A stretch of DNA of 64,000 nt from Candidatus Omnitrophota bacterium (lineage in GTDB: Bacteria > Omnitrophota > Gorgyraeia > Gygaellales > Profunditerraquicolaceae). Position 1 is the first letter of the stretch. Every line of letters starts with the position of its first letter. The notes below the pieces were generated by a model. It was given only the letters and a program-made list of their open reading frames with translations. It had not been told where the DNA came from and made no database searches. A program made the translations under genes and the position numbers. Of this stretch, positions 11,374-56,230 are shown piece after piece. The stretch spans positions 64,043 to 128,042 of the forward strand of contig JAQURX010000005.1 of assembly GCA_028715415.1 (NCBI GenBank), read 5' to 3'.

Positions 11374-11481
11374 TTTGTCATTCCCTCTAACTTTGTCATT
11401 CCCGCGAAAGCGGGAATCTACGCTATAGCCTGGATCCCTGCTGGAGTTTATCCCTGCGAAAGCAGGGACAGGGATGACAAC
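11374..11481. repeat. Palindromic repeat element: half-site + hairpin A (ATTCCCGCGAAAGCGGGAAT) + complex hairpin-B variant
   Basis: tttgtcattccc...tgtcattcccgcgaaagcgggaatctacgctat...tggatccctgctggagtttatccctgcgaaagcagggacagggatgacaa; same B variant recurs at 24107-24160. Confidence 0.85.
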
Positions 11482-23128: not shown

Positions 23129-24099
23129 TTTTTAAACCTTACCCTTGGATCAACATACGCATAACTGATATCAGCGATTAAATTCCCAAGCATTGTTAAA
23201 ACTGCACCCAAAACAACTTCAGCCATAATCAATGGATAGTCACGCGTCATTACAGCTTCATAAAATAAACGGCCGATACCCGGAAGAGCAAAAATTGACT
23301 CAAAGATAACACTTCCTCCTAAAAGCCCGGGAATTGATAAACCTAAAATAGTAACAATCGGCATAATTGCATTTCTAAGCGCGTGTTTATAAAGAACCAC
23401 ATTTTCCGGTAAACCTTTTGAACGGGCTGTATAAATATACGGCTGATTCAAAACTTCAATCATACTTGAACGCATATATCGGGAAATTCCCGCCAAGCCT
23501 CCGATGCATGAAACAAAAACAGGCAGCATCAAATGCCTGCTTAAATCTGCAATTTTCCCCCAAAAGCTATAATATTCAAAATCCAAAGAAGTGATTCCGG
23601 AAATTGGCAGCCATCCTAATGTTATCCCGAATAAATTCATCAGAAGCAAAGCCAGCCAAAAAGTAGGCATGGCAAAACCGATAAAAACAAAGATAGTCGT
23701 GATTTTATCAAATGCCTGATTTGGCCTGATTGCGCTTCTTACTCCCAATGCAATTCCAAGAATAAGAATTATTATTAAAGATAGGACATTTATAACTAAA
23801 GTTATGGGGATTTTTTCCAGGATTTTATTTAAGACTGGGCGGCCATCGCTAAATGAATTGCCAAAATCAAATTTAACCAACTTTTTAACCCAATTAAAAT
23901 ATTGTTCATGCAGAGGCTTATCAAGGCCATATAATTTCTCAAGCCTATGGCGGACCTCTAAAGAAACCTTAGGGTTAAGCGATTGCTGAATCTCAGTAGG
24001 CTTTCCCGGGGCAAGATGAATAATAAAAAAACTAATAATCGTAATGCCGAAGAAAATCGGCAGAAGCATCAATAATCTTTTCGCTAAATATTTAATCAT
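23125..24099 (-). CDS. oppB: Oligopeptide ABC transporter permease
   Basis: 324 aa DppB/OppB-type permease. Confidence 0.85.
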
Positions 24100-24106
24100 A
24101 TTTTAC

Positions 24107-24284
24107 TGGATCCCTGCTGGAGTTTATCCCTGCGAAAGCAGGGACAGGGATGACAATCGCATGTCATTCCCGCGCCCTTCTGTCATTCCCGCGTTCTTCA
24201 TGTCATTCCCGCGAAAGCGGGAATCTACGCTATTTAGTGGATCCCTGCTTTCGCAGGGATGACATTGCCCTGCAGGGATGACAG
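24107..24284. repeat. Composite palindromic element filling the oppA-oppB intergenic region
   Basis: B-variant hairpin + three TGTCATTCCCGCG(CCCTTC) half-sites + hairpin A + hairpin B + extra CCCTGCAGGGATGACA. Confidence 0.85.
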
Positions 24285-29834: not shown

Positions 29835-29860
29835 CATTTCTTAATTAGTATAATAATTCT

Positions 29861-30037
29861 GGATCCCTGCTTTCGCAGGGATGACAAACTATACTCCAAA
29901 TCTTAACTGTTTTTTATGCCATCTAAGCGTCTTTTATGTCATTACCTGAACCTTGTCATTCCCAGAACCTTGTCATTCCCTGAACTTTGTCATTCCCTGA
30001 ACTTTGTCATTCCCGCGAAAGCGGGAATCTACGCTAT
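29861..30037. repeat. Repeat element: hairpin B, 47-bp spacer, four tandem CTTTGTCATTCCCTGAA half-site units, hairpin A
   Basis: ggatccctgctttcgcagggatgacaa ... cttgtcattcccagaaccttgtcattccctgaactttgtcattccctgaactttgtcattcccgcgaaagcgggaatctacgctat. Confidence 0.85.
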
Positions 30038-30328
30038 ATCCTTATATAAATCTCTCCAATGGGAATTTCTTTTCTCAATCAACTCAATCTTCCAAACTCT
30101 TTTCCACTTTTTTATACATTTCTCACGAATAATCGCACTATTGATATCTTCCGCTATTTCATAGTAAACTAAATCGTGGACACGATATTTTTTAGTAAAT
30201 CCTTCAATAATATCATTTTTATGTTCGTATACCCTTAACAACAAATTATTAGTAACCCCAGTATATAACGTACCTTTCTTTCCGCTTGCCATAATATATA
30301 CATAATAACTTTTATCCATATCTGTCAT
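30029..30328 (-). CDS. GIY-YIG nuclease-domain protein (UPF0213-like, ~96-99 aa)
   Basis: YYVYIMASGKKGTLYTGVTNNLLLRVYEHKN = GIY-YIG motif with conserved R and E. Last three codons and TAG lie inside hairpin A; annotated ATG lies inside a TGTCATTCCC half-site, so the true start may be the M at 30319. Confidence 0.75.
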   Translation of the reverse strand: MTDMDKSYYVYIMASGKKGTLYTGVTNNLLLRVYEHKNDIIEGFTKKYRVHDLVYYEIAEDINSAIIREKCIKKWKRVWKIELIEKRNSHWRDLYKDIA

Positions 30329-30425
30329 TCCCGCGCCCTTCTGTCATTCCCGCGCCCTTCTGTCATTCCCGCAAAAGCGGGAATCTACGCTATATAGTGG
30401 ATCCCTGCTTTCGCAGGGATGACAA
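30323..30425. repeat. Repeat element: 3x TGTCATTCCCGCGCCCTTC + hairpin A (GCAAAAGC loop variant) + hairpin B
   Basis: tgtcattcccgcgcccttctgtcattcccgcgcccttctgtcattcccgcaaaagcgggaatctacgctatatagtggatccctgctttcgcagggatgacaag. Confidence 0.85.
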
Positions 30426-30428
30426 GAG

Positions 30429-30941
30429 TTAATTTAACCCAAACCTTGGCTTAGGTGGCTCAGGTGGTGGCTCAAGCAGCTTCTTTATTGCTTCAAAGAT
30501 TACTTGGATATCTGTTTCGTGCAGCTGATACTTTCTTTCTAATTCTTCCAACTTCTCTGCTAATTCTTTATGCGTAAGAAGCAACTCTCGAATTCTTACA
30601 AAAGCCCGCATTATAGCGATATTAACCTGAACCGCTCTTTCAGAATTAAGAACACTTGAAAGCATCGCTACTCCTTCTTGAGTAAAAACATACGGTGTGC
30701 TTGAAGAATGTTTTAATAGCTTAAACCGGTCACAATTTGTGACCAGTTCGTTTTTCTCTTTTTCTGATAAACTAAACATAAAATCTCCTGGGAAACGATT
30801 ACGATTTCTCTTTACTGATTGATTCAATACCTTTGTTCCAATCCCATACAACTCCGCCAAGTCTCTATCCAGCATAACCTTTTTACCTCTTATCACTAAA
30901 ATCTTCGCAGCTACTGCCTCAACAATCAATTCTTTTCCCAT
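30429..30941 (-). CDS. ORF6N-domain (KilA-N-related) DNA-binding protein, paralog 1
   Basis: Start moved to MGKELIV (ATG 30941) with AAGGAGGAAGAAAAT upstream; shares VMLDRDLAELYG...RFP.DFMF...PYVFTEQGVAMLS.VLNS..A.QVNIAIMRAFV..RE.LLTHKELA.KLEELERKY with paralog 2. Confidence 0.65.
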   Translation of the reverse strand: MGKELIVEAVAAKILVIRGKKVMLDRDLAELYGIGTKVLNQSVKRNRNRFPGDFMFSLSEKEKNELVTNCDRFKLLKHSSSTPYVFTQEGVAMLSSVLNSERAVQVNIAIMRAFVRIRELLLTHKELAEKLEELERKYQLHETDIQVIFEAIKKLLEPPPEPPKPRFGLN

Positions 30942-31087
30942 ATTTTCTTCCTCCTTATGCCCAGCAAGGGCACACTGGCGCAAATCCGATAAGCGCCAGG
31001 TGCTACAACAATAGACGAAGAAACTTGCAAAATCTAACACAAAAAAAGCAAAAAAAAGCGGAGAGAATTTCTTCTCTCCGCTAATAT

Positions 31088-31168
31088 TTCATTCCCGCGA
31101 ACGCGGGAATCTACGCTATTTAGTGGATCCCTGCTTTCGCAGGGATGACAACTTCTACAGGGATGACA
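31088..31168. repeat. Repeat element: hairpin A (GCGAACGC variant) + hairpin B + 2x CAGGGATGACA
   Basis: tcattcccgcgaacgcgggaatctacgctatttagtggatccctgctttcgcagggatgacaacttctacagggatgacagttg. Confidence 0.85.
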
Positions 31169-31174
31169 GTTGTA

Positions 31175-31825
31175 TTAAGCTTTCTTTCTTTTAATACGTG
31201 AACCTACAGCTAAAGCTCCACTACCTAACAAAAACAACGCCGAGCTAATTGGCTCTGGAGTTGTTACTACATTTGCATCATGTGAAGGTGGATTAAAATA
31301 CCAGCCGTTTTGATTATTTTCATCAGAGCTTCCATAAGCATCAAAATGGAATTTTAAACCTGAATTAATGAAATCGGTGATTGAAACCGGTATTCCAATC
31401 GTTGTACCAGCAGCTACATCACCAATGGTATATTCTGTCCATTTTGCTGTCCCCTCTGGCCAAAAGATACTATGTGGAGGCAAATAAGTGTGACTTCCTG
31501 TATTAGTAAAGCTGGAATAATAATATGGTGTGGTATTAACAGTTAATTTCCAAGGCTCTGTTGGAGATGAAGTCCCCGGAATAGACAAAACAAGATGTGC
31601 ATCAAAAATAGTAGCGTCGGCAGTATTCTGGAAATTTAGAGTAAAACTCGGATTATGAGTTAGGTCACTTTCTTCTAGCCAAGGGTCACTTGAAATACCG
31701 ACTTCCTCAGCTCCCGGAATACTTAACCAAATCTTAGCCTTACCACCGTTATTATCAGGAGGAGTTGCCCAAGCTGAACCAGCAACAAAAAACAAACATA
31801 CAAGCGTTAAAAATAGTTTTTTCAT
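31175..31825 (-). CDS. PEP-CTERM sorting-domain secreted protein
   Basis: Signal peptide; C-terminus TTPEPISSALFLLGSGALAVGSRIKRKKA (PEP motif, TM helix, basic tail). Confidence 0.7.
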   Translation of the reverse strand: MKKLFLTLVCLFFVAGSAWATPPDNNGGKAKIWLSIPGAEEVGISSDPWLEESDLTHNPSFTLNFQNTADATIFDAHLVLSIPGTSSPTEPWKLTVNTTPYYYSSFTNTGSHTYLPPHSIFWPEGTAKWTEYTIGDVAAGTTIGIPVSITDFINSGLKFHFDAYGSSDENNQNGWYFNPPSHDANVVTTPEPISSALFLLGSGALAVGSRIKRKKA

Positions 31826-32490
31826 CTTACACCTCTTCGTTTTCTTAATCCAACTAATGCGGCTCCGCCTAACAAAAACAACGCACTGCTAATCGGTTCA
31901 GGAGTTGCGGTAATTTTAGTCGTAAAAAATCTCTGGCAATATAAATCATTTCCGCCATTTGTCCAAATCCATTTAGCATTATTATCAATATTAGGATAAT
32001 CTATGTTCCATTTTCCACCATAACCCTGCCCATCATAGGCAAGCTCATCTATAACTCCAAAATTATGAAAATCAAATTGCTCAAGGCGCACTGTCCAATC
32101 AGTTGCGTTGGACAATAAATATTGCGTTCCATTTGCAAACTTAAACCCGCTGCCAGACAATGTAAAATCGCCAATAAAGCCAGCTAAATTAGTTATAGTA
32201 GCAGCACCCAAAACAGTCAAATAATAATCGTGTCCCGGAGTAAGCTGTGTGCTGAAATGAGTTTGAGCGGAATCAGGATCGGGATTAGCGCTTGAACCGC
32301 CGGTTATTAATTGAGCATTCAAGAAATTGGCATCCGTATCATTAATCCAGACGGTAAATTGCCTATCAACAACTACATCCCCTGATAATGTTACTGTAGA
32401 AGCATAAACTGGAGTAAATACGACGAGGGAAATCAATGCAACTAAAAATAATTTAAATTTCATTGGAACCTCTTTGTTTCGGGTTATCAA
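31822..32490 (-). CDS. PEP-CTERM sorting-domain secreted protein
   Basis: C-terminus TATPEPISSALFLLGGAALVGLRKRRGVR. Confidence 0.7.
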   Translation of the reverse strand: MITRNKEVPMKFKLFLVALISLVVFTPVYASTVTLSGDVVVDRQFTVWINDTDANFLNAQLITGGSSANPDPDSAQTHFSTQLTPGHDYYLTVLGAATITNLAGFIGDFTLSGSGFKFANGTQYLLSNATDWTVRLEQFDFHNFGVIDELAYDGQGYGGKWNIDYPNIDNNAKWIWTNGGNDLYCQRFFTTKITATPEPISSALFLLGGAALVGLRKRRGVR

Positions 32491-32618
32491 TTTAGAATTA
32501 CGAAAATCCCGGAAGGATATTTCAACTTTATTATACTAAATCTGACGTACCTGTCAACACTTTTTTAATCTATTTATAAACGAATTTATAAATCAAATTA
32601 GGAAGGAATATCCCTCGC

Positions 32619-32741
32619 TGTCATTCCCGCAGAAGCGGGAATCTACGCTATATAGTGGATCCCTGCTTTCGCAGGGATGACAACTTCTACAGGGATGACA
32701 ACTTCTACAGGGATGACAACTCCTGCAGGGATGACAAATAG
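32619..32741. repeat. Repeat element: hairpin A (GCAGAAGC) + hairpin B + 4 tandem CTTCTACAGGGATGACAA units
   Basis: tgtcattcccgcagaagcgggaatctacgctatatagtggatccctgctttcgcagggatgacaacttctacagggatgacaacttctacagggatgacaactcctgcagggatgacaaatag. Confidence 0.85.
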
Positions 32742-33398
32742 TTAAACCTTCTTTTTTAACCTCACCCCAATCGCCAGCGCCCCGCTTCCTAACAAAAATA
32801 ACGCACTGCTTATCGGCTCAGGCGTAGCTTTAACAGATAAATATGCAGATGGAGGATATTCTAACGATCTAAATGCTACAAAAGGCTGCCCAGGAGCAAG
32901 AATATCCTGCTCCTCTTTCCTTATATTAAAACCAACATAACTTTTACCAGAGCTAATTAAATCATGAACAACAGAAGTAACATCATAATTAAGCGTAGAT
33001 TGATCATTGAATGTAATTGAACCAATGATGTTGCCGCGGGCGTAATCATCAAAGTCTAAGTATCCATCGCCAGCATAAGAATAGATACCTAACGTGTATG
33101 GAAAAGGCCCAAGGCACTCTTCAACCGTTAAATTCAGGCTTGCAGCAATAAATGAATTTTCAATACTTGAAAGAGGAAATTCAAAAAGCGCTCGTGAAGC
33201 AGAACCATTCATATTCATTGCCTGCGGATAACCAGTTGAATTTATATAATCCCCTTGCCCGTCAAACAGATTTGGATATTTACCATCAAAAACAGTTCCA
33301 TCAACCACTGGCGAAACATCAAAAGCCTGTGCATGCAATATAGGTAAAAATATTAAACTACAAAATAATACTGCTATATTTAGAATTCTTGAATTCAT
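32742..33398 (-). CDS. PEP-CTERM sorting-domain secreted protein
   Basis: C-terminus KATPEPISSALFLLGSGALAIGVRLKKKV. Confidence 0.7.
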   Translation of the reverse strand: MNSRILNIAVLFCSLIFLPILHAQAFDVSPVVDGTVFDGKYPNLFDGQGDYINSTGYPQAMNMNGSASRALFEFPLSSIENSFIAASLNLTVEECLGPFPYTLGIYSYAGDGYLDFDDYARGNIIGSITFNDQSTLNYDVTSVVHDLISSGKSYVGFNIRKEEQDILAPGQPFVAFRSLEYPPSAYLSVKATPEPISSALFLLGSGALAIGVRLKKKV

Positions 33399-33400
33399 AT

Positions 33401-34243
33401 TTATCCTTGTTTTCTTTTTCGTAATTTACGCGCTGCAAACAATCCGCTTCCCAATAAAAATAACGCACTGCTTACCGGCTCGGGAGTAACTGAAACATTA
33501 AAATTATCAAAATAAGCTTTACTTGTTCCACCTTCCAAACCAAAACCTGCGCCGAAAGTTTCTGCGGCAAGTAAAATCTTAAAGTCAGTTATATCCGGAT
33601 ATTGCACCTTAAAATCAGTTACTGTATCTTGGACCAAATCACCTTCTTGATCAACAATAGTATTCCCCGAAAGATCAGTAATCCTCATTGTTAAAGTTCC
33701 ACTTCCAGAAGCATCATAATCATACCAAATAGTGCCATCCGTTTCACTTCCTAATCTGGGATAAAGATAACCATTTCCGCTTCCACCTTCTAAAATATAA
33801 TTAGCAAATGTAGTCTGGCCTTTATTTACTTCTGGCCCGGCGCAGAAAATATATGCAGGACTTTCTAAATCACTCGGCCAAAATGCCAGCCCCATCCACA
33901 AATCGCTATCTTTGGTTGTCAAGGGGTTAAAATGAAAATCAGTTCTTGCCGAGAAATTATTATCTAATCCAAATGAAGACTGAGACCTTATCAATGACAA
34001 AGCAGTCTCGTATGTCTTGCTCCAGCCATTTTCATAGCCCGAAGGATTGACGAATTCAAAATGTCCATTTTGATCAACAGAATACAATCTCTCAGGTGTG
34101 CTCCCGCCGTAAAAACCATCCTCCCAAACCGCGGAATTAAAGAGATTATCATTAAAATCATCCGACCAGCCGCTTGTTGCCATTGCCGTTGCAGGTAAAA
34201 CAAATAAACCGCACAATATTAAACCAAAAACAAATCTTTTCAC
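33401..34243 (-). CDS. PEP-CTERM sorting-domain secreted protein
   Basis: C-terminus SVTPEPVSSALFLLGSGLFAARKLRKRKQG. Confidence 0.7.
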   Translation of the reverse strand: MKRFVFGLILCGLFVLPATAMATSGWSDDFNDNLFNSAVWEDGFYGGSTPERLYSVDQNGHFEFVNPSGYENGWSKTYETALSLIRSQSSFGLDNNFSARTDFHFNPLTTKDSDLWMGLAFWPSDLESPAYIFCAGPEVNKGQTTFANYILEGGSGNGYLYPRLGSETDGTIWYDYDASGSGTLTMRITDLSGNTIVDQEGDLVQDTVTDFKVQYPDITDFKILLAAETFGAGFGLEGGTSKAYFDNFNVSVTPEPVSSALFLLGSGLFAARKLRKRKQG

Positions 34244-34344
34244 TGTTCCTCCCTTAGTTGATTGAAAAAGTATTTATAAAGTTTTTTAATAATTCAAAAG
34301 TTATTATAAGAATTTACTGCTCAGTGTCAAGAAAATATTTTTTT

Positions 34345-34410
34345 CTGTCATTCCCGCACCCTTCTGTCATTCCTGCATCCCATCTGTCATTCCCGCGAAA
34401 GCGGGAATCC
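34345..34410. repeat. Repeat element: 2 degenerate half-sites + hairpin A (no B partner)
   Basis: tgtcattcccgcacccttctgtcattcctgcatcccatctgtcattcccgcgaaagcgggaatcc. Confidence 0.8.
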
Positions 34411-34434
34411 ATCTTGAAGTCACAATTTGTGACC

Positions 34435-34989
34435 TCAAGAATGAAACCCTATCTTAGGCTTCTCTGGTACCGAAGACGTAGTCATAAGCTGCTTGATAAC
34501 CTCGAGTATCATCTGAACATCTTTCTCGTGTAAGTTATACTTTCTCTCTAGTTCTTCAAGCTTTTGCGCTAATTCTTTGTGTGTCAATAAAAACTCCCGC
34601 AGCTTAACAAATGCACGCATAATCGCAATATTAACCTGAATAGCCTTATCTGAATTTAATACAGTAGAAAGCATTGCCACACCCTGCTCAGTAAATACAT
34701 AAGGAAGATATTTGATATTTCTCCCTCTTGTTATTGTAATAACTTCTTTATCTTCAATATGTTCGTTCAAGGTCGCAATTTGCGACCTTGAAACTCCTAC
34801 CTCCTCTTTATTCAACTGGAACATAAAATCTGCTGGGAATCTTTTTGCATTTCTTTTTACCTGCTCATTAAGTCTTTTTACCGACACCCCATACAACTCC
34901 GCCAAGTCCCTATCCAGCATCACTTTTCTTCCTCGTATAAACAGAATCTTTGTCGCCACCACCTCTGCACTAACTATGTCTTTTGTCAT
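34435..34989 (-). CDS. ORF6N-domain (KilA-N-related) DNA-binding protein, paralog 2
   Basis: 184 aa; GGAGG SD upstream of ATG at 34989; ORF6N core conserved with paralog 1. Confidence 0.65.
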   Translation of the reverse strand: MTKDIVSAEVVATKILFIRGRKVMLDRDLAELYGVSVKRLNEQVKRNAKRFPADFMFQLNKEEVGVSRSQIATLNEHIEDKEVITITRGRNIKYLPYVFTEQGVAMLSTVLNSDKAIQVNIAIMRAFVKLREFLLTHKELAQKLEELERKYNLHEKDVQMILEVIKQLMTTSSVPEKPKIGFHS

Positions 34990-35067
34990 AATAATTCCTC
35001 CTTATACACCAATAGACGTAAAAACAACCAAAATCTAACTAACTTTTTTATGAAGGGACTGGTCCCG

Positions 35068-35137
35068 ACTGTCATTCCCGCCCCTTCTGTCATTCCCGCC
35101 CCTTCTGTCATTCCCGCGAAAGCGGGAATCTACGCTA
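35068..35137. repeat. Repeat element: 2x TGTCATTCCCGCCCCTTC + hairpin A
   Basis: tgtcattcccgccccttctgtcattcccgccccttctgtcattcccgcgaaagcgggaatctacgctattt. Confidence 0.85.
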
Positions 35138-35173
35138 TTTCATTTTAACCCAATCTATGTTATAATCCTCTCC

Positions 35174-36850
35174 ATGAAACTTAAAACAACCCTACTTCTA
35201 ACTCTTCTAGCGCTTCTACTCCCAGTCCTCACAACCGCCTCTGATACAGACGAATGGTATCCTTACGTCATTCCTGAAAAATTAGACCAAAACTCACCCC
35301 TTAATATAGGTAAGCTCGTCTTAGACGCCCCTGCAGGTAAACATGGCTTTGTTAAGGTAAAAGAAGGACATTTTTATTTTGAAGATGGTACTAGGGCAAA
35401 ATTTTGGGGGACAAACCTTTGTTTTGATGCAAACTTTCCTACTAAAGAACAAGCAAAAATATTAGCCGACCGCATCGCCTATTTTGGCTTTAATGCTGTG
35501 CGCCTGCATCATATGGATTTTTACTTTGAACCTCGGGGGATTTTCGAAGACGTCTGCCCTGCCTTTAAAGACCCACAAATGAAAAAAACAGACGTCTTAA
35601 GCAAAAAACAGTTAGAAAAACTTGATTATTTTATTTACCTATTGAAACAACGAGGAATTTACATTGATATGAATTTATTGGTTGCTCGCCACTTTACTGA
35701 AGCTGATGGCGTGGTTGATGCGGCAATGTTAGGCATGGCTGCAAAACCATATTCAATGTTTGACAAAAAGTTAATTGAGTTACAGAAAAAATACGCCAAA
35801 GATTTACTCACTCACTACAATCCTTACACCAAACTACGCTACTGTGATGATCCTGCAGTTGCGCTTGTGGAGATTATTAATGAAACTACTCTTTCTAAAA
35901 AGGATCCAAAAACAATGCCAGATTATTATAAGAATCAACTAACTCAAACAACAGAATCTACAGATAACATTGAAAAGAGATATTACACTGAAATAATGAA
36001 ATCCTTAAAAAAAGATATCGGAGTAAAATGCCCTATTACTGGATCTCAATATTCCAGCACAAATGCATTAGAACCCTGCGACTTTATTGACAAACACGCA
36101 TATTGGGATCATCCCAAATTTCCCAACAAACCTTGGGATAAAAATGATTTCCGAATCCATAACAAATCTGCTCTTCTTGATAAAAAACTTGGCATTATTA
36201 AACTATTAATTGAGAAATCGCCTTGTAACTTGAAACCTGAAACTTGCAACCGTAAACCCTACACAGTTACTGAATGGAATCATTGCTACCCTAACCAATA
36301 CGCTTATGAAACACCAATTATCTTAGCATCTGAAGCCCTAAGAAACAATTGGGATGGATTATTTCAATTTAATTTTAGTGGAGGATGGAAACTTGAACCG
36401 GATTTTACTAAAATTGAAAGTCATTTCAACACTATTGCTAACCCCCAACAATTAATCCTGAACTCATTAAGCAGTTTAATTTTTCTTAAAAATGAAGAAA
36501 ATGAAACTTCTCTTAATAATGGAGCATATACTATCAATTCTCCTGATTTAAACGCTATCATCGGCTTTATAAAAGATAAACCTCAAGCACTTGGTCCCTT
36601 CACTATAACCACTGATCAAGATGGCGTAGTTGCACTTCTTAAGAATAATAATCAATATATATTATTTGCGATAAGCGAAGTAAAGAATACTGATTCTGGA
36701 TGGAACAAAGAAGGAAAATTTAACTGGGGCAAACCACCTGTGCTTCTTAAACGAATCAACGTTACAGTTCAATACAACGGTAAAACCATTCCTACAGATT
36801 TCTCAAAATCTCCCTATTGCGTAATTCCTACAATAACTGACACACAATAA
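35174..36850 (+). CDS. Secreted clan GH-A (GH5-like) TIM-barrel glycoside hydrolase
   Basis: Signal peptide; NAVRLHHMD, IINET (candidate acid/base NE), HAYWD and TVTEWNH (candidate nucleophile E) resemble GH5 signature regions; family assignment tentative. Confidence 0.45.
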   Translation: MKLKTTLLLTLLALLLPVLTTASDTDEWYPYVIPEKLDQNSPLNIGKLVLDAPAGKHGFVKVKEGHFYFEDGTRAKFWGTNLCFDANFPTKEQAKILADRIAYFGFNAVRLHHMDFYFEPRGIFEDVCPAFKDPQMKKTDVLSKKQLEKLDYFIYLLKQRGIYIDMNLLVARHFTEADGVVDAAMLGMAAKPYSMFDKKLIELQKKYAKDLLTHYNPYTKLRYCDDPAVALVEIINETTLSKKDPKTMPDYYKNQLTQTTESTDNIEKRYYTEIMKSLKKDIGVKCPITGSQYSSTNALEPCDFIDKHAYWDHPKFPNKPWDKNDFRIHNKSALLDKKLGIIKLLIEKSPCNLKPETCNRKPYTVTEWNHCYPNQYAYETPIILASEALRNNWDGLFQFNFSGGWKLEPDFTKIESHFNTIANPQQLILNSLSSLIFLKNEENETSLNNGAYTINSPDLNAIIGFIKDKPQALGPFTITTDQDGVVALLKNNNQYILFAISEVKNTDSGWNKEGKFNWGKPPVLLKRINVTVQYNGKTIPTDFSKSPYCVIPTITDTQ

Positions 36851-36904
36851 TGTCATTCCCGCGTCCCTTTTGTCATTCCCGCGAAAGCGGGAATCTACGC
36901 TATT
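36851..36904. repeat. Repeat element (half-site + hairpin A) filling the 50-bp gap between convergent genes; candidate bidirectional terminator
   Basis: tgtcattcccgcgtcccttttgtcattcccgcgaaagcgggaatctacgctattt; TagA stop codon (36900-36902) lies inside the element. Confidence 0.8.
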
Positions 36905-37649
36905 TCTTCCCAACCTTCTGCTTCAACACCAACCAAAAAAACTGCATATCATCAATTAAATATCGTTTCCAAAGCCTTTTAGGCTCCATAAGAATACGCC
37001 AAAACCACTCAAAACCAACTTTCCTCATCCACAAAGGAGCCCTTTTAACAACTCCTGCCTCAAAATCAAAACTCGCTCCTATCCCTATCGACAAAGGAAC
37101 TTTGTATTCATCTCTATACCTATAAATCCATTTTTCTTGCTTAGGAGTCCCTAAACCTACAAATAAAATATCCGGTTGAACCTCTTTAATCAATTCAATA
37201 ACTTGCCTATTCTCGACTTCATCTTTTTCAAACCCAAAAGATGGACAATGCGCTCTTACAATATTTATCCCACGGTATCTATTCTTAAAAGCCTTCTCCA
37301 CGCTTTCAACTGATCCCAGCCTGCCACCTAAAAAGAAAATTCTCAGTCCTTTATCGCTTGCTACTTCGCATAATTTTGGTAAAAGATCTGAACCGGATAT
37401 CTTCTCTTTTATTCCTTTCCCAAGAAATTTAGATAGCCAAATAATCGGCATTCCGTCAGTCAAAACCAATGCAGCATTATCGTAAACCATTTTTAAATCA
37501 GAATCTCTCTGCAACTGCATTAAATGATCAACATTAGGAGTTACAATAAAATGATACTTATCTTTACAAAAAGATAAACTAATACTTTCCTCTATGGCCT
37601 CAATAAAAGTAACATTATCTATTTTTGCTCCACAGATATCTATTTTCAT
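36900..37649 (-). CDS. WecB/TagA/CpsF family glycosyltransferase
   Basis: 249 aa; RIFFLGG...PKQE motif region typical of TagA/WecG. Confidence 0.8.
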   Translation of the reverse strand: MKIDICGAKIDNVTFIEAIEESISLSFCKDKYHFIVTPNVDHLMQLQRDSDLKMVYDNAALVLTDGMPIIWLSKFLGKGIKEKISGSDLLPKLCEVASDKGLRIFFLGGRLGSVESVEKAFKNRYRGINIVRAHCPSFGFEKDEVENRQVIELIKEVQPDILFVGLGTPKQEKWIYRYRDEYKVPLSIGIGASFDFEAGVVKRAPLWMRKVGFEWFWRILMEPKRLWKRYLIDDMQFFWLVLKQKVGKK

Positions 37650-49890: not shown

Positions 49891-49904
49891 AATTTATATA
49901 TTCT

Positions 49905-49983
49905 GGATTCCCGCTTTCGCGGGAATGACATTATTAATAGATTCCCGCTTTCGCGGGAATGACAGCCGCTGCGGGAATGACAA
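49905..49983. repeat. Repeat element, reverse orientation: 2x hairpin A (ATTCCCGCTTTCGCGGGAATGACA) + partial
   Basis: ggattcccgctttcgcgggaatgacattattaatagattcccgctttcgcgggaatgacagccgctgcgggaatgacaatag. Confidence 0.85.
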
Positions 49984-50263: not shown

Positions 50264-50281
50264 ACAGCCTCCTTTATTAAT

Positions 50282-50358
50282 AGATTCCCGCTTTCGCGGG
50301 AATGACACCGCTGCGGGAATGACACACTTACTGAATCCCTGCTTTCGCAGGGATGACA
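50282..50358. repeat. Repeat element, reverse orientation: hairpin A + partial A + hairpin B
   Basis: agattcccgctttcgcgggaatgacaccgctgcgggaatgacacacttactgaatccctgctttcgcagggatgacatt. Confidence 0.85.
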
Positions 50359-56015: not shown

Positions 56016-56042
56016 TTAATACTCCTTTTATATTTGTCATTC

Positions 56043-56230
56043 CCGCCCCTGCTTCCGCAGGGGTAAACTGCAGCGGGAATCTACGCTATTTAGTGGATCC
56101 CTGCTTTCGCAGGGATGACAATCACATGTCATTCCCACATTATTTGTCATTCCCGCCCCTGCTTCCGCAGGGGTAAACTGCAGCGGGAATCTACGCTATT
56201 TAGTGGATCCCTGCTTTCGCAGGGATGACA
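56043..56230. repeat. Two tandem copies of a variant composite element in which hairpin A carries a nested hairpin (CCCCTGC-TTCC-GCAGGGG) in its loop
   Basis: tgtcattcccgcccctgcttccgcaggggtaaactgcagcgggaatctacgctatttagtggatccctgctttcgcagggatgaca x2, separated by a degenerate half-site (catgtcattcccacatta). Confidence 0.85.

Follow-up and report, generated by a model that had tools for sequence, protein, structure and literature searches.

Many hairpins in the window, a 64-kb (64,000-nt) stretch of an Omnitrophota contig, are preceded by short tandem arrays built from one half of a nuclease recognition site. Each array repeats the 5' half of the hairpin, TGTCATTCCC(GC), which comprises GTC and the 5' stem arm, in 1-4 extra copies, and the complete hairpin that terminates the array holds its sole 3' arm. 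Judged by its sequence, this hairpin, TGTCATTCCCGC-GAAA-GCGGGAATC, is the Ssn-related motif (SRM/NTS) of the hairpin-nuclease system described by Chenal et al. (Nat Commun 2025; PMC11893778). The system itself has thus been known since 2025, and the window is an Omnitrophica member of it. For the cleavage-side half-site arrays and the rules that they obey, we found no earlier description in the literature: the 5' half alone is repeated, one 3' arm is held in common, the side is set by the orientation of the motif, decay of the units is polar, and the arrays occur in many phyla. We regard the arrays, with moderate confidence, as orientation-specific, Ssn-linked duplications and potential split substrates of the nuclease.

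SsnA, a single-domain GIY-YIG protein of 94 amino acids in the Ssn nuclease family (cd10448), binds its motif as ssDNA only, with no binding to dsDNA, and cuts a few nucleotides upstream of it, in Neisseria at a distance of about 3 nt or more (Chenal et al., 2025; PMC11893778). Cutting is controlled by the GTC that precedes the palindrome, and binding by the C right after it; binding also needs the 3' arm. The NTS loop can be extended or removed and SsnA still cuts. It also cuts a split NTS, in which two oligonucleotides carry one half each, and, provided that the second half is added, an engineered concatemer of first halves (Chenal et al., 2025). The ssn genes are typically flanked by SRMs (PMC11893778). 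The terms 'tandem' and 'direct repeat' are absent from the main text of that paper, which was the sole relevant match in our literature searches on GIY-YIG proteins with REP sequences and on the motif strings.

A scripted census of the window recorded 24 hairpins of two related types, A (TGTC-ATTCCCGC-loop-GCGGGAAT-C) and, on its own strand, B (TTGTC-ATCCCTGC-loop-GCAGGGAT-C), which often stand head to head as a doublet with outer ends TGTCAT...ATGACA. With the published SRM search pattern, HGTCWYN(0-2)YYVSBRHN(0-5)WNVSBRGN(0-2)RNCYNB (PMC11893778), the window gave 10 matches, all of them type A hairpins, while sequences simulated from a first-order Markov model (100 runs) averaged 0.08. The pattern leaves out type B and three variants of A. 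Hairpin A (TGTCATTCCCGCGAAAGCGGGAATCTAC) differs from the Neisseria NTS consensus (CGTCATTCCCGCGMAVGCGGGAATCYRG) at the first and last positions alone. The directional features, GTC before the palindrome and C right after it, are present in A (TGTC-ATTCCCGC-GAAA-GCGGGAAT-C) and, read on its own strand, in B (TTGTC-ATCCCTGC-GAAA-GCAGGGAT-C).

The 10-mer TGTCATTCCC occurs 28 times in the window, where 0.10 copies are expected, and 0 of 100 dinucleotide shuffles attained a count of 28. Its copies are arranged in 13 short tandem arrays (period 17-20 nt), and one complete hairpin terminates every one of them (13/13). Half-sites, 1-4 in number, stand 5' of 13 of the 24 hairpins (54%) and 3' of none (0/24). 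The repeat unit is the 5', cleavage-side half of the SRM with a spacer of 5-9 nt, mostly pyrimidine; the 3' arm is never repeated (Table 1). Tandem Repeats Finder (TRF) recovered, essentially where a first-pass annotation of this DNA had placed them, five arrays: 29937-30014 (period 17, 4.6 copies, 93% matches), 30321-30372 (period 19, 2.7 copies, 100% matches), 24160-24213 (period 19, 2.8 copies), 35069-35117 (period 18, 2.7 copies, 100% matches) and, on the B side, 32672-32737 (period 18, 3.7 copies). It also reported 34343-34396 (period 20). The fourfold array announced at 29935 does have four units, the outermost of them (TGTCATTACC) being degenerate; the threefold array at 24162 comes down to two half-sites, its third unit being the hairpin's own arm. 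The spacing of about two helical turns was roughly right, given periods of 17-20 nt. Read directly, the segment 29700-30600 runs TGTCATTACCTGAACCT, TGTCATTCCCAGAACCT and TGTCATTCCCTGAACTT twice, directly into TGTCATTCCCGC-GAAA-GCGGGAATC. To these the census added arrays at 34346-34384, 11376-11393, 36851-36870 and 56127-56144, minus-strand arrays at 49965-49982 (-) and 50308-50324 (-), and single extra B half-sites at about 24265-24284 and about 31151-31169.

Table 1. Half-site arrays, their hairpins and the ssn-like gene in the window
Feature	Coordinates	Strand	Evidence
Array, four 17-nt units TGTCATT[A/C]CC + [CT/AG/TG]AAC[C/T]T	29937..30004	+	TRF, sequence, census
Degenerate outermost unit (TGTCATTACC)	at 29937	+	sequence
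Complete SRM/NTS hairpin A (TGTCATTCCCGC GAAA GCGGGAATC TAC), terminates the 29937 array	30005..30032	+	published SRM pattern match
ssn-like gene, putative 96-aa single-domain GIY-YIG nuclease	30029..30319	-	Pfam PF01541
Two identical 19-nt units, TGTCATTCCCGCGCCCTTC	30323..30360	+	TRF (100% matches), census
Hairpin A, loop AAAA	30361-30388	+	SRM pattern
Inverted hairpin B, 8-nt linker after hairpin A 30361-30388	30397-30425		sequence
Two A half-sites, then hairpin A	24162-24200, 24201-24228	+	TRF, SRM pattern, census
Hairpin B, then one extra B half-site	24237-24265, 24266-24284	+	census
Two A half-sites (periods 19, 20) and hairpin A	34346..34412	+	TRF, SRM pattern, census
Two identical 18-nt units (TGTCATTCCCGCCCCTTC) and hairpin A	35070..35133	+	TRF, SRM pattern, census
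One A half-site and hairpin A	36851..36898	+	SRM pattern, census
One A half-site and hairpin A	11376..11421	+	SRM pattern, census
Hairpin A (32619-32646), hairpin B (32655-32683), three 18-nt B units (CTTCTACAGGGATGACAA)	32619..32737	+	TRF, census
Hairpin A variant (TTTCATT...), hairpin B, one B half-site	31087..31169	+	census
Two A hairpins (49903-49930, 49937-49964), one half-site (49965-49982) on the second	49903..49982	-	SRM pattern, census
Hairpin A and one half-site (50308-50324)	50280..50324	-	SRM pattern, census
One half-site and long-loop A hairpin	56127..56191	+	TRF, census

The window is ordinary chromosome, encoding AlaRS, RecA, RecX, SMC, PGK, TIM, SecG, UvrB and ValRS as well as an exosortase/PEP-CTERM cluster and a polysaccharide locus. 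By Pfam, no transposase, integrase, recombinase, RAYT, Rep or partition gene was found among its ORFs of at least 110 aa, and Rfam and tRNA scans of the window gave no matches. The array at 34346..34412 adjoins an ORF6N gene (34435-34989, minus strand), and the pair of hairpins at 30361..30425 forms a REPIN-like A+B doublet with its TGTCAT...ATGACA ends outward.

Two SRMs, at 30005-30032 and 30361-30388, bracket the ssn-like gene (30029-30319); the former overlaps the stop codon of the gene. They lie in direct orientation, whereas elsewhere the inverted layout is commoner. The encoded protein matches PF01541 over residues 8-80 (Pfam, E=1.6e-13) and has no second domain by Pfam; translation could alternatively start from an ATG at 30328. 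The protein has an exact match (100% identity) in a Candidatus Omnitrophica MAG, where it is named 'GIY-YIG nuclease family protein'. Its homologues among the matches listed are 64-76% identical, and those that are named, at 65-75%, come from MAGs of Caldiserica, Elusimicrobia, Omnitrophota, Candidatus Daviesbacteria, Nitrospinae and Nitrospirae. NCBIfam and PDB sequence searches with the protein gave no matches. Residues Y8, Y19 and E66 repeat the spacing (11 and 47 residues) of Y6, Y17 and E64 of SsnA, the correspondence being one of spacing and not of an alignment with SsnA; mutations of these three SsnA residues abolish cutting (PMC11893778). On these sequence grounds the 96-aa protein would be an Ssn-type nuclease and the putative partner of the hairpins. 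The first-pass annotation had rightly seen in the motif part of a protein-recognition element, now identified as the SRM/NTS, and in the GIY-YIG protein a candidate partner. The ORF6N proteins, its other candidates, look like putative cargo between hairpins rather than a binding partner.

The architecture extends well beyond this genome. When one genome of each species was scanned for pairs of half-sites separated by 6-11 nt, at least 120 stretches matched; they belong to more than 25 bacterial lineages, including Zixibacteria, Planctomycetota, Elusimicrobia, Omnitrophota, Saccharibacteria and other CPR, Nitrospirales, Coxiellaceae, Rickettsia, Bdellovibrionales, Cyanobacteria, Clostridia and others. 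Matches that looked by eye like in-frame coding-type repeats were excluded (loci L003, L006, L010, L011, L013, L018, L023 and L135), and the matches listed then gave a sample of 164 non-redundant arrays. Among these, a complete hairpin terminates 151 of 164, none of the 284 internal units has a 3' arm of its own, the period falls in the range 15-24 nt (modes 18, 20 and 21), and the longest run is 10 half-sites in a row, i.e., 9 extra. In 127 of the 151 arrays among the matches listed, agreement of the internal units with the hairpin extends to 2 nt or less from the loop boundary. Where the SRM is a variant, the array repeats that variant's own 5' arm, and at one long-loop variant SRM it copies the whole loop and halts just before the 3' arm.

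Arrays are nevertheless optional. Among 158 hairpins sampled regardless of arrays, 10 (6%) have upstream half-sites, against 13 of 24 here, which makes the window genome unusually array-rich. At 80 loci selected for ssn, the usual layout is a sense hairpin 35-60 nt upstream and an inverted hairpin 20-80 nt downstream of the gene, and most of these cassettes have a single hairpin at each end, with few carrying arrays. With about 94% of the unbiased hairpin sample and most ssn cassettes devoid of them, the arrays are clearly dispensable for the system. We infer that they are optional by-products and not an obligatory part of the element.

The arrays are dynamic in copy number, as the first-pass annotation had supposed, and variation was measured among paralogues. 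On one Nitrospirales chromosome, paralogues with common downstream sequence carry 2, 2, 2, 2, 5 and 8 units; Rickettsiales contigs carry 2 versus 4 units, and also 2, 2 and 3. At loci chosen for their arrays, where ascertainment bias is possible, mismatches per 10-mer rise with distance from the hairpin (0.21, 0.36, 0.88 and 1.07 for indices 1 to 4), the units nearest the hairpin being closest to its sequence and the distal ones decayed. In decayed units of the same loci, and under the same possible bias, the GTCAT core is best kept (6-12% mismatch), while the first T mismatches in 30% and the loop-proximal bases in 35-39%. The GTCAT core includes the nucleotides that govern cleavage (PMC11893778). 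Within the window, 24162-24264 and 30323-30424 share 95% identity along some 103 nt that include the array, and the homology between these paralogues begins exactly at the outermost TGTC; the arrays thus seem to have been copied together with the element. The first-pass annotation had also correctly placed them on the outside of an IS-like hairpin element.

We propose that the arrays arise by an orientation-specific duplication that would run from the cleavage-side flank up to the 3' arm, without ever including the latter. Most likely, Ssn would nick the DNA or act as a roadblock, and the growing strand would then realign. Further units would apparently be added beside the hairpin, and the arrays would then lengthen or shorten by slippage and travel with the copied hairpin element. 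Five arrays are clean tandem duplications in place, and their left boundary falls 3-8 nt before TGTC, where the published cut site also lies (PMC11893778). Most arrays, however, give way to unrelated DNA right at the TGTC of their first unit (0-2 nt shared in 116 of 151), and a repeat block that starts at TGTC itself, when the Neisseria cut falls about 3 nt or more upstream, argues against an Ssn-linked origin. Spacer 7-mers were at control level as reverse complements on either side, modestly above control downstream on the same strand (14 vs 4.7; 8 vs 3.8) and in clear excess upstream on the same strand, which is consistent with extra decayed units. The spacers are pyrimidine-rich, and so, less strongly, is the sequence upstream of solitary hairpins. 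Together, the flank, boundary and spacer data suggest that seeding may occur on the cleavage side of the motif and be followed by hairpin-proximal growth through slippage and copying with the element. Two other ideas suit only part of the arrays: a simple tandem duplication of the local flank, which fits only the about 9% of arrays in which the upstream flank reproduces the whole spacer, a share that also speaks against the route proposed here, and a mirror-repeat or triplex, in which the spacer CGCCCTT mirrors the arm TTCCCGC in some arrays and from which many spacers deviate.

In the window, eight arrays are left of plus-strand hairpins and five right of minus-strand hairpins, so that 13 of 13 are on the motif's own 5' side; the half-site at 49965-49982, for instance, is to the right of its minus-strand hairpin in plus-strand coordinates, and the B units of 32619..32737 lie 5' of B as read on the minus strand, its own. 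GC skew is negative throughout, and the window therefore probably lies in one replichore. Under pure replication slippage without Ssn, the polymerase would stall at the stem, the nascent end would realign, and flank and arm would be duplicated neutrally. Because the stem is palindromic, such a stall would duplicate whichever arm the polymerase meets first, and the arrays would track the direction of replication. Their side tracks the orientation of the motif and not the strand, which calls for an orientation-specific agent. By analogy with the published enzyme, Ssn would be the one known feature of the system with the needed property, directional binding with a cut on that side. In viral contigs, moreover, a scan for tandem 3' halves gave 21 matches, none attached to an NTS, and the matching scan for 5' halves gave about 15 genuine arrays in 22 matches. 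Slippage does account for the near-identical units within an array, for copy numbers that differ among paralogues and for the optional nature of the arrays. Also in its favor are a few clean tandem duplications made in place: those of the strict set have 0-1 nt of microhomology, and some examples show apparent CGC/CCGC matches of 3-5 nt. Yet the local flank is not duplicated in about 90% of arrays, and slippage, although the first-pass annotation was partly right to name it, on its own leaves unexplained both the repetition of the 5' half only and the rule of hairpin orientation; as the whole explanation, we consider it unlikely.

A different route would be nested insertion, in which an element, or a fragment reaching from the cut to the apex, enters the hairpin tip and strands the resident 5' arm upstream. 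It would explain why the spacers usually bear no relation to the flank before the first unit, why the block begins exactly at TGTC, and why the units nearest the hairpin are least diverged. Long-loop hairpins with a nested hairpin exist at 56035, 56145, 11433 and 24109 and in other phyla; that of 56127..56191 has the order 5' arm, nested B-like hairpin, TAAACTGCA, 3' arm. They keep this alternative live, but insertion of whole elements would leave orphan 3' arms downstream of arrays, where there are none, the near-identical spacers of each array fit local copying better than independent insertions, and no enzyme that would join the fragments is evident. GIY-YIG nucleases hydrolyze DNA and are not known to form a covalent intermediate. 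We rate nested insertion as quite unlikely. The first-pass annotation had proposed duplex binding sites, either iterons or sub-terminal transposase or recombinase sites, for an ORF6N-like protein or a recombinase. The regular 17-21-nt spacing, the occurrence of arrays, in other genomes, at the outside of an IS-like ssn cassette and the hairpin-flanked ORF6N genes of the window speak for such sites. We reject the iteron reading: the arrays are 13 dispersed intergenic loci of an ordinary chromosome, in a window with no origin and no Rep, transposase, integrase, recombinase or RAYT among ORFs of at least 110 aa. In most ssn cassettes each end has just one hairpin, and an ORF6N homologue was found at 1 of the 144 other loci examined. 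The units stop at the loop and are half hairpins instead of complete duplex sites. They also lack the 3' arm and the post-palindrome C that the published enzyme needs, and SsnA does not bind dsDNA (PMC11893778). Duplex binding sites are thus a very unlikely explanation.

Returning to Ssn-linked duplication, the structure of the units suggests how the nuclease might act on an array. Each half-site keeps GTC and the 5' arm and can thus pair with the single 3' arm in ssDNA. When the region becomes single-stranded, any half-site might pair with the common 3' arm; such a register shift would recreate a long-loop or 'split' substrate, and the Ssn cut upstream of it would fall within a spacer. Shifted-register structures are plausible Ssn substrates by extension from the published split-site and loop-extension results. 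For the 30323 array, shifted registers have predicted energies of -5.9 and -6.6 kcal/mol versus -11.8 for the terminal hairpin; for the 29937 array, whose units keep only TTCCC, they have -2.2 to -3.3 versus -9.3 kcal/mol, the latter for the DNA hairpin predicted in the 111-nt array region. With the terminal tetraloop hairpin far more stable, shifts of register may seldom occur. The arrays may function as multi-register cut sites. We doubt the stronger proposal that the arrays are functional, as a ladder of Ssn cut sites that would release defined 17-21-nt 5'-phosphorylated ssDNA oligonucleotides or set variable ends of the element for its mobilization. If it were true, hairpin-proximal growth would be a polar record of successive chromosomal Ssn events, and the arrays would be the first readout, kept in the genome itself, of how a site-specific ssDNA nuclease acts on its host.

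Among known systems, the window most resembles NTS/SRM-Ssn itself, in the motif, the single-domain GIY-YIG protein of about 95 aa, the NTS-ssn-NTS layout and the intergenic clustering; the concatemer of 'first-half NTS' made by its discoverers is the artificial counterpart of the arrays (PMC11893778). It differs in having 1-4 extra 5' halves with one common 3' arm where the paper has single hairpins, in its host, an Omnitrophica MAG outside the organisms assayed there, and in pairing A with a co-varying B (ATCCCTGC/GCAGGGAT) that lies outside the published pattern. The dRS3 sequences and NIMEs of Neisseria share the core palindrome ATTCCC-N8-GGGAAT and the intergenic clustering, including by surface-protein genes. 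NIMEs are repeat units of 50-150 bp bounded by complete dRS3 palindromes, and not arrays of short half-palindromes as in the window. REP/BIME/REPIN-RAYT systems offer short extragenic hairpins, inverted doublets (A+B), a small nuclease gene flanked by hairpins and ssDNA recognition. The window enzyme is a hydrolytic GIY-YIG nuclease, however, and not a Y1/HUH transposase; no RAYT (Y1, IS200/IS605-type) was found by Pfam among window ORFs of at least 110 aa. To our knowledge, half-site arrays have not been described for REPs. The authors of the Ssn paper draw the REP/RAYT analogy too (PMC11893778). Iterons and the sub-terminal repeats of transposons (Tn7 and Mu ends) are likewise short direct repeats at about two helical turns by a structured or terminal element. 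They are complete duplex sites by a rep or transposase gene, whereas the window units are halves of an ssDNA hairpin site, intergenic in the chromosome and optional.

The known role of Ssn nucleases is in Neisseria transformation only. Duplication on the cleavage side that recurs across many phyla is a natural footprint, and suggests that Ssn, or a hairpin-bound complex, acts on genomic DNA in vivo. The frequency, period and polarity of the arrays could then serve as a cheap computational marker of Ssn activity, and the arrays as natural templates for the 'split-site' programmable cutting of the discoverers of the system. For annotation, they account for a common class of spurious ORFs and of assembly breaks in MAGs. 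The Logan contigs that match the exact neighboring proteins of the window are 1.2-1.8 kb long and broken at the repeats.

The NTS elements, sites related to the published single-stranded DNA hairpin target of the small GIY-YIG nuclease Ssn, are very dense in the window (about 24 hairpins per 64 kb). Across the exosortase/EpsI and PEP-CTERM protein cluster (29860-36900) one occupies most intergenic gaps, the element being absent from those at 31825/31822 and 33398/33401; this resembles the situation in Neisseria, where NTS have been published as clustering around genes for surface proteins. Further along, GC content falls to 0.27-0.32 between 38000 and 50000, against 0.35-0.40 elsewhere, in a segment coding for glycosyltransferases, Wzy and a flippase, an O-antigen-like locus. 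Minus-strand NTS hairpins lie at its right edge (49.9-50.4 kb), so the segment may be an island gained by horizontal transfer. A pair of ORF6N-domain genes sharing 58% identity also have NTS hairpins on either side and look like the cargo of NTS-gene-NTS cassettes; among the 144 other loci compared, just one (L132) contained an ORF6N homologue.

Positions of the repeats, hairpins and genes discussed (window coordinates, except for locus L325)
Feature	Position	Strand	Detail
(G)CGCCCTT(C) spacers	30323-30360		also in L143, L130, L033, L118
(G)CGCCCTT(C) spacers	24162-24180
(G)CGCCCTT(C) spacers	35070-35105
16-nt unit run	L325 2261-2481	- (of locus)	TTTTTGTCATTCCTTC / TTTTTGTTATTCCTTC; at least 10 copies
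ORF6N-domain gene	30429-31040	-
ORF6N-domain gene	34435-34989	-
Perfect 110-bp tandem duplication	56031-56230		1.8 copies, 100% identity
Nested B hairpin	11433-11479
Nested B hairpin	24109-24155
Mechanical ORF	29916-30164	+	crosses array and hairpin
Mechanical ORF	34258-34533	+	crosses array and hairpin
Mechanical ORF	36850-37125	+	crosses array and hairpin
Mechanical ORF	24044-24262	+	crosses array and hairpin

In the half-site arrays (tandem 5' halves, each arm plus spacer, upstream of one complete hairpin), many of the spacers have the sequence (G)CGCCCTT(C), which mirrors the 5' arm TTCCCGC. Together, spacer and arm form pyrimidine mirror repeats (TTCCCGCGCCCTT), which could in principle fold as triplexes onto the GGGAA arm or adopt C-rich structures; the pattern is missing from many other arrays. 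Of the half-site-like arrays seen, the one in locus L325 is both the longest and the most degenerate; it lies upstream of a variant Ssn-related motif that adjoins an ssn gene. The only repeat seen on the 3' side, one 3'-arm-like copy downstream of the NTS in the viral-contig loci L184, L247 and L248, belongs to a conserved family of the form CGTCATTCCCGCG...GCGGGAATCCAG-N11-GCGGCAGGAATCTATCGG resembling the RS/NIME repeats of Neisseria; it represents one family that has propagated, not an array.

Some hairpins contain others. Within the tandem duplication, a B-like hairpin, CCCTGCTTCCGCAGGGG, sits in the long loop of a type A hairpin, with TAAACTGCA after it; two B hairpins carry a second hairpin nested in the loop together with TAAACTCCA, reading GGATCCCTGC TGGAGTTTA TCCCTGCGAAAGCAGGGA CAGGGATGACAA on the plus strand. 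In other phyla (L027, L140, L132, L077, L286), NTS hairpins are followed by a similar motif, GGGGTAAACTCCAGC, which may thus be a second conserved module.

The half-site arrays and hairpins also bear on annotation and assembly. Mechanical ORFs crossing them encode peptides such as SFPRKRES and CHSRESGN, and are likely to yield spurious 'hypothetical protein' calls in metagenome-assembled genomes. Short-read contigs of this organism (L001, L024) are likewise broken at these repeats.
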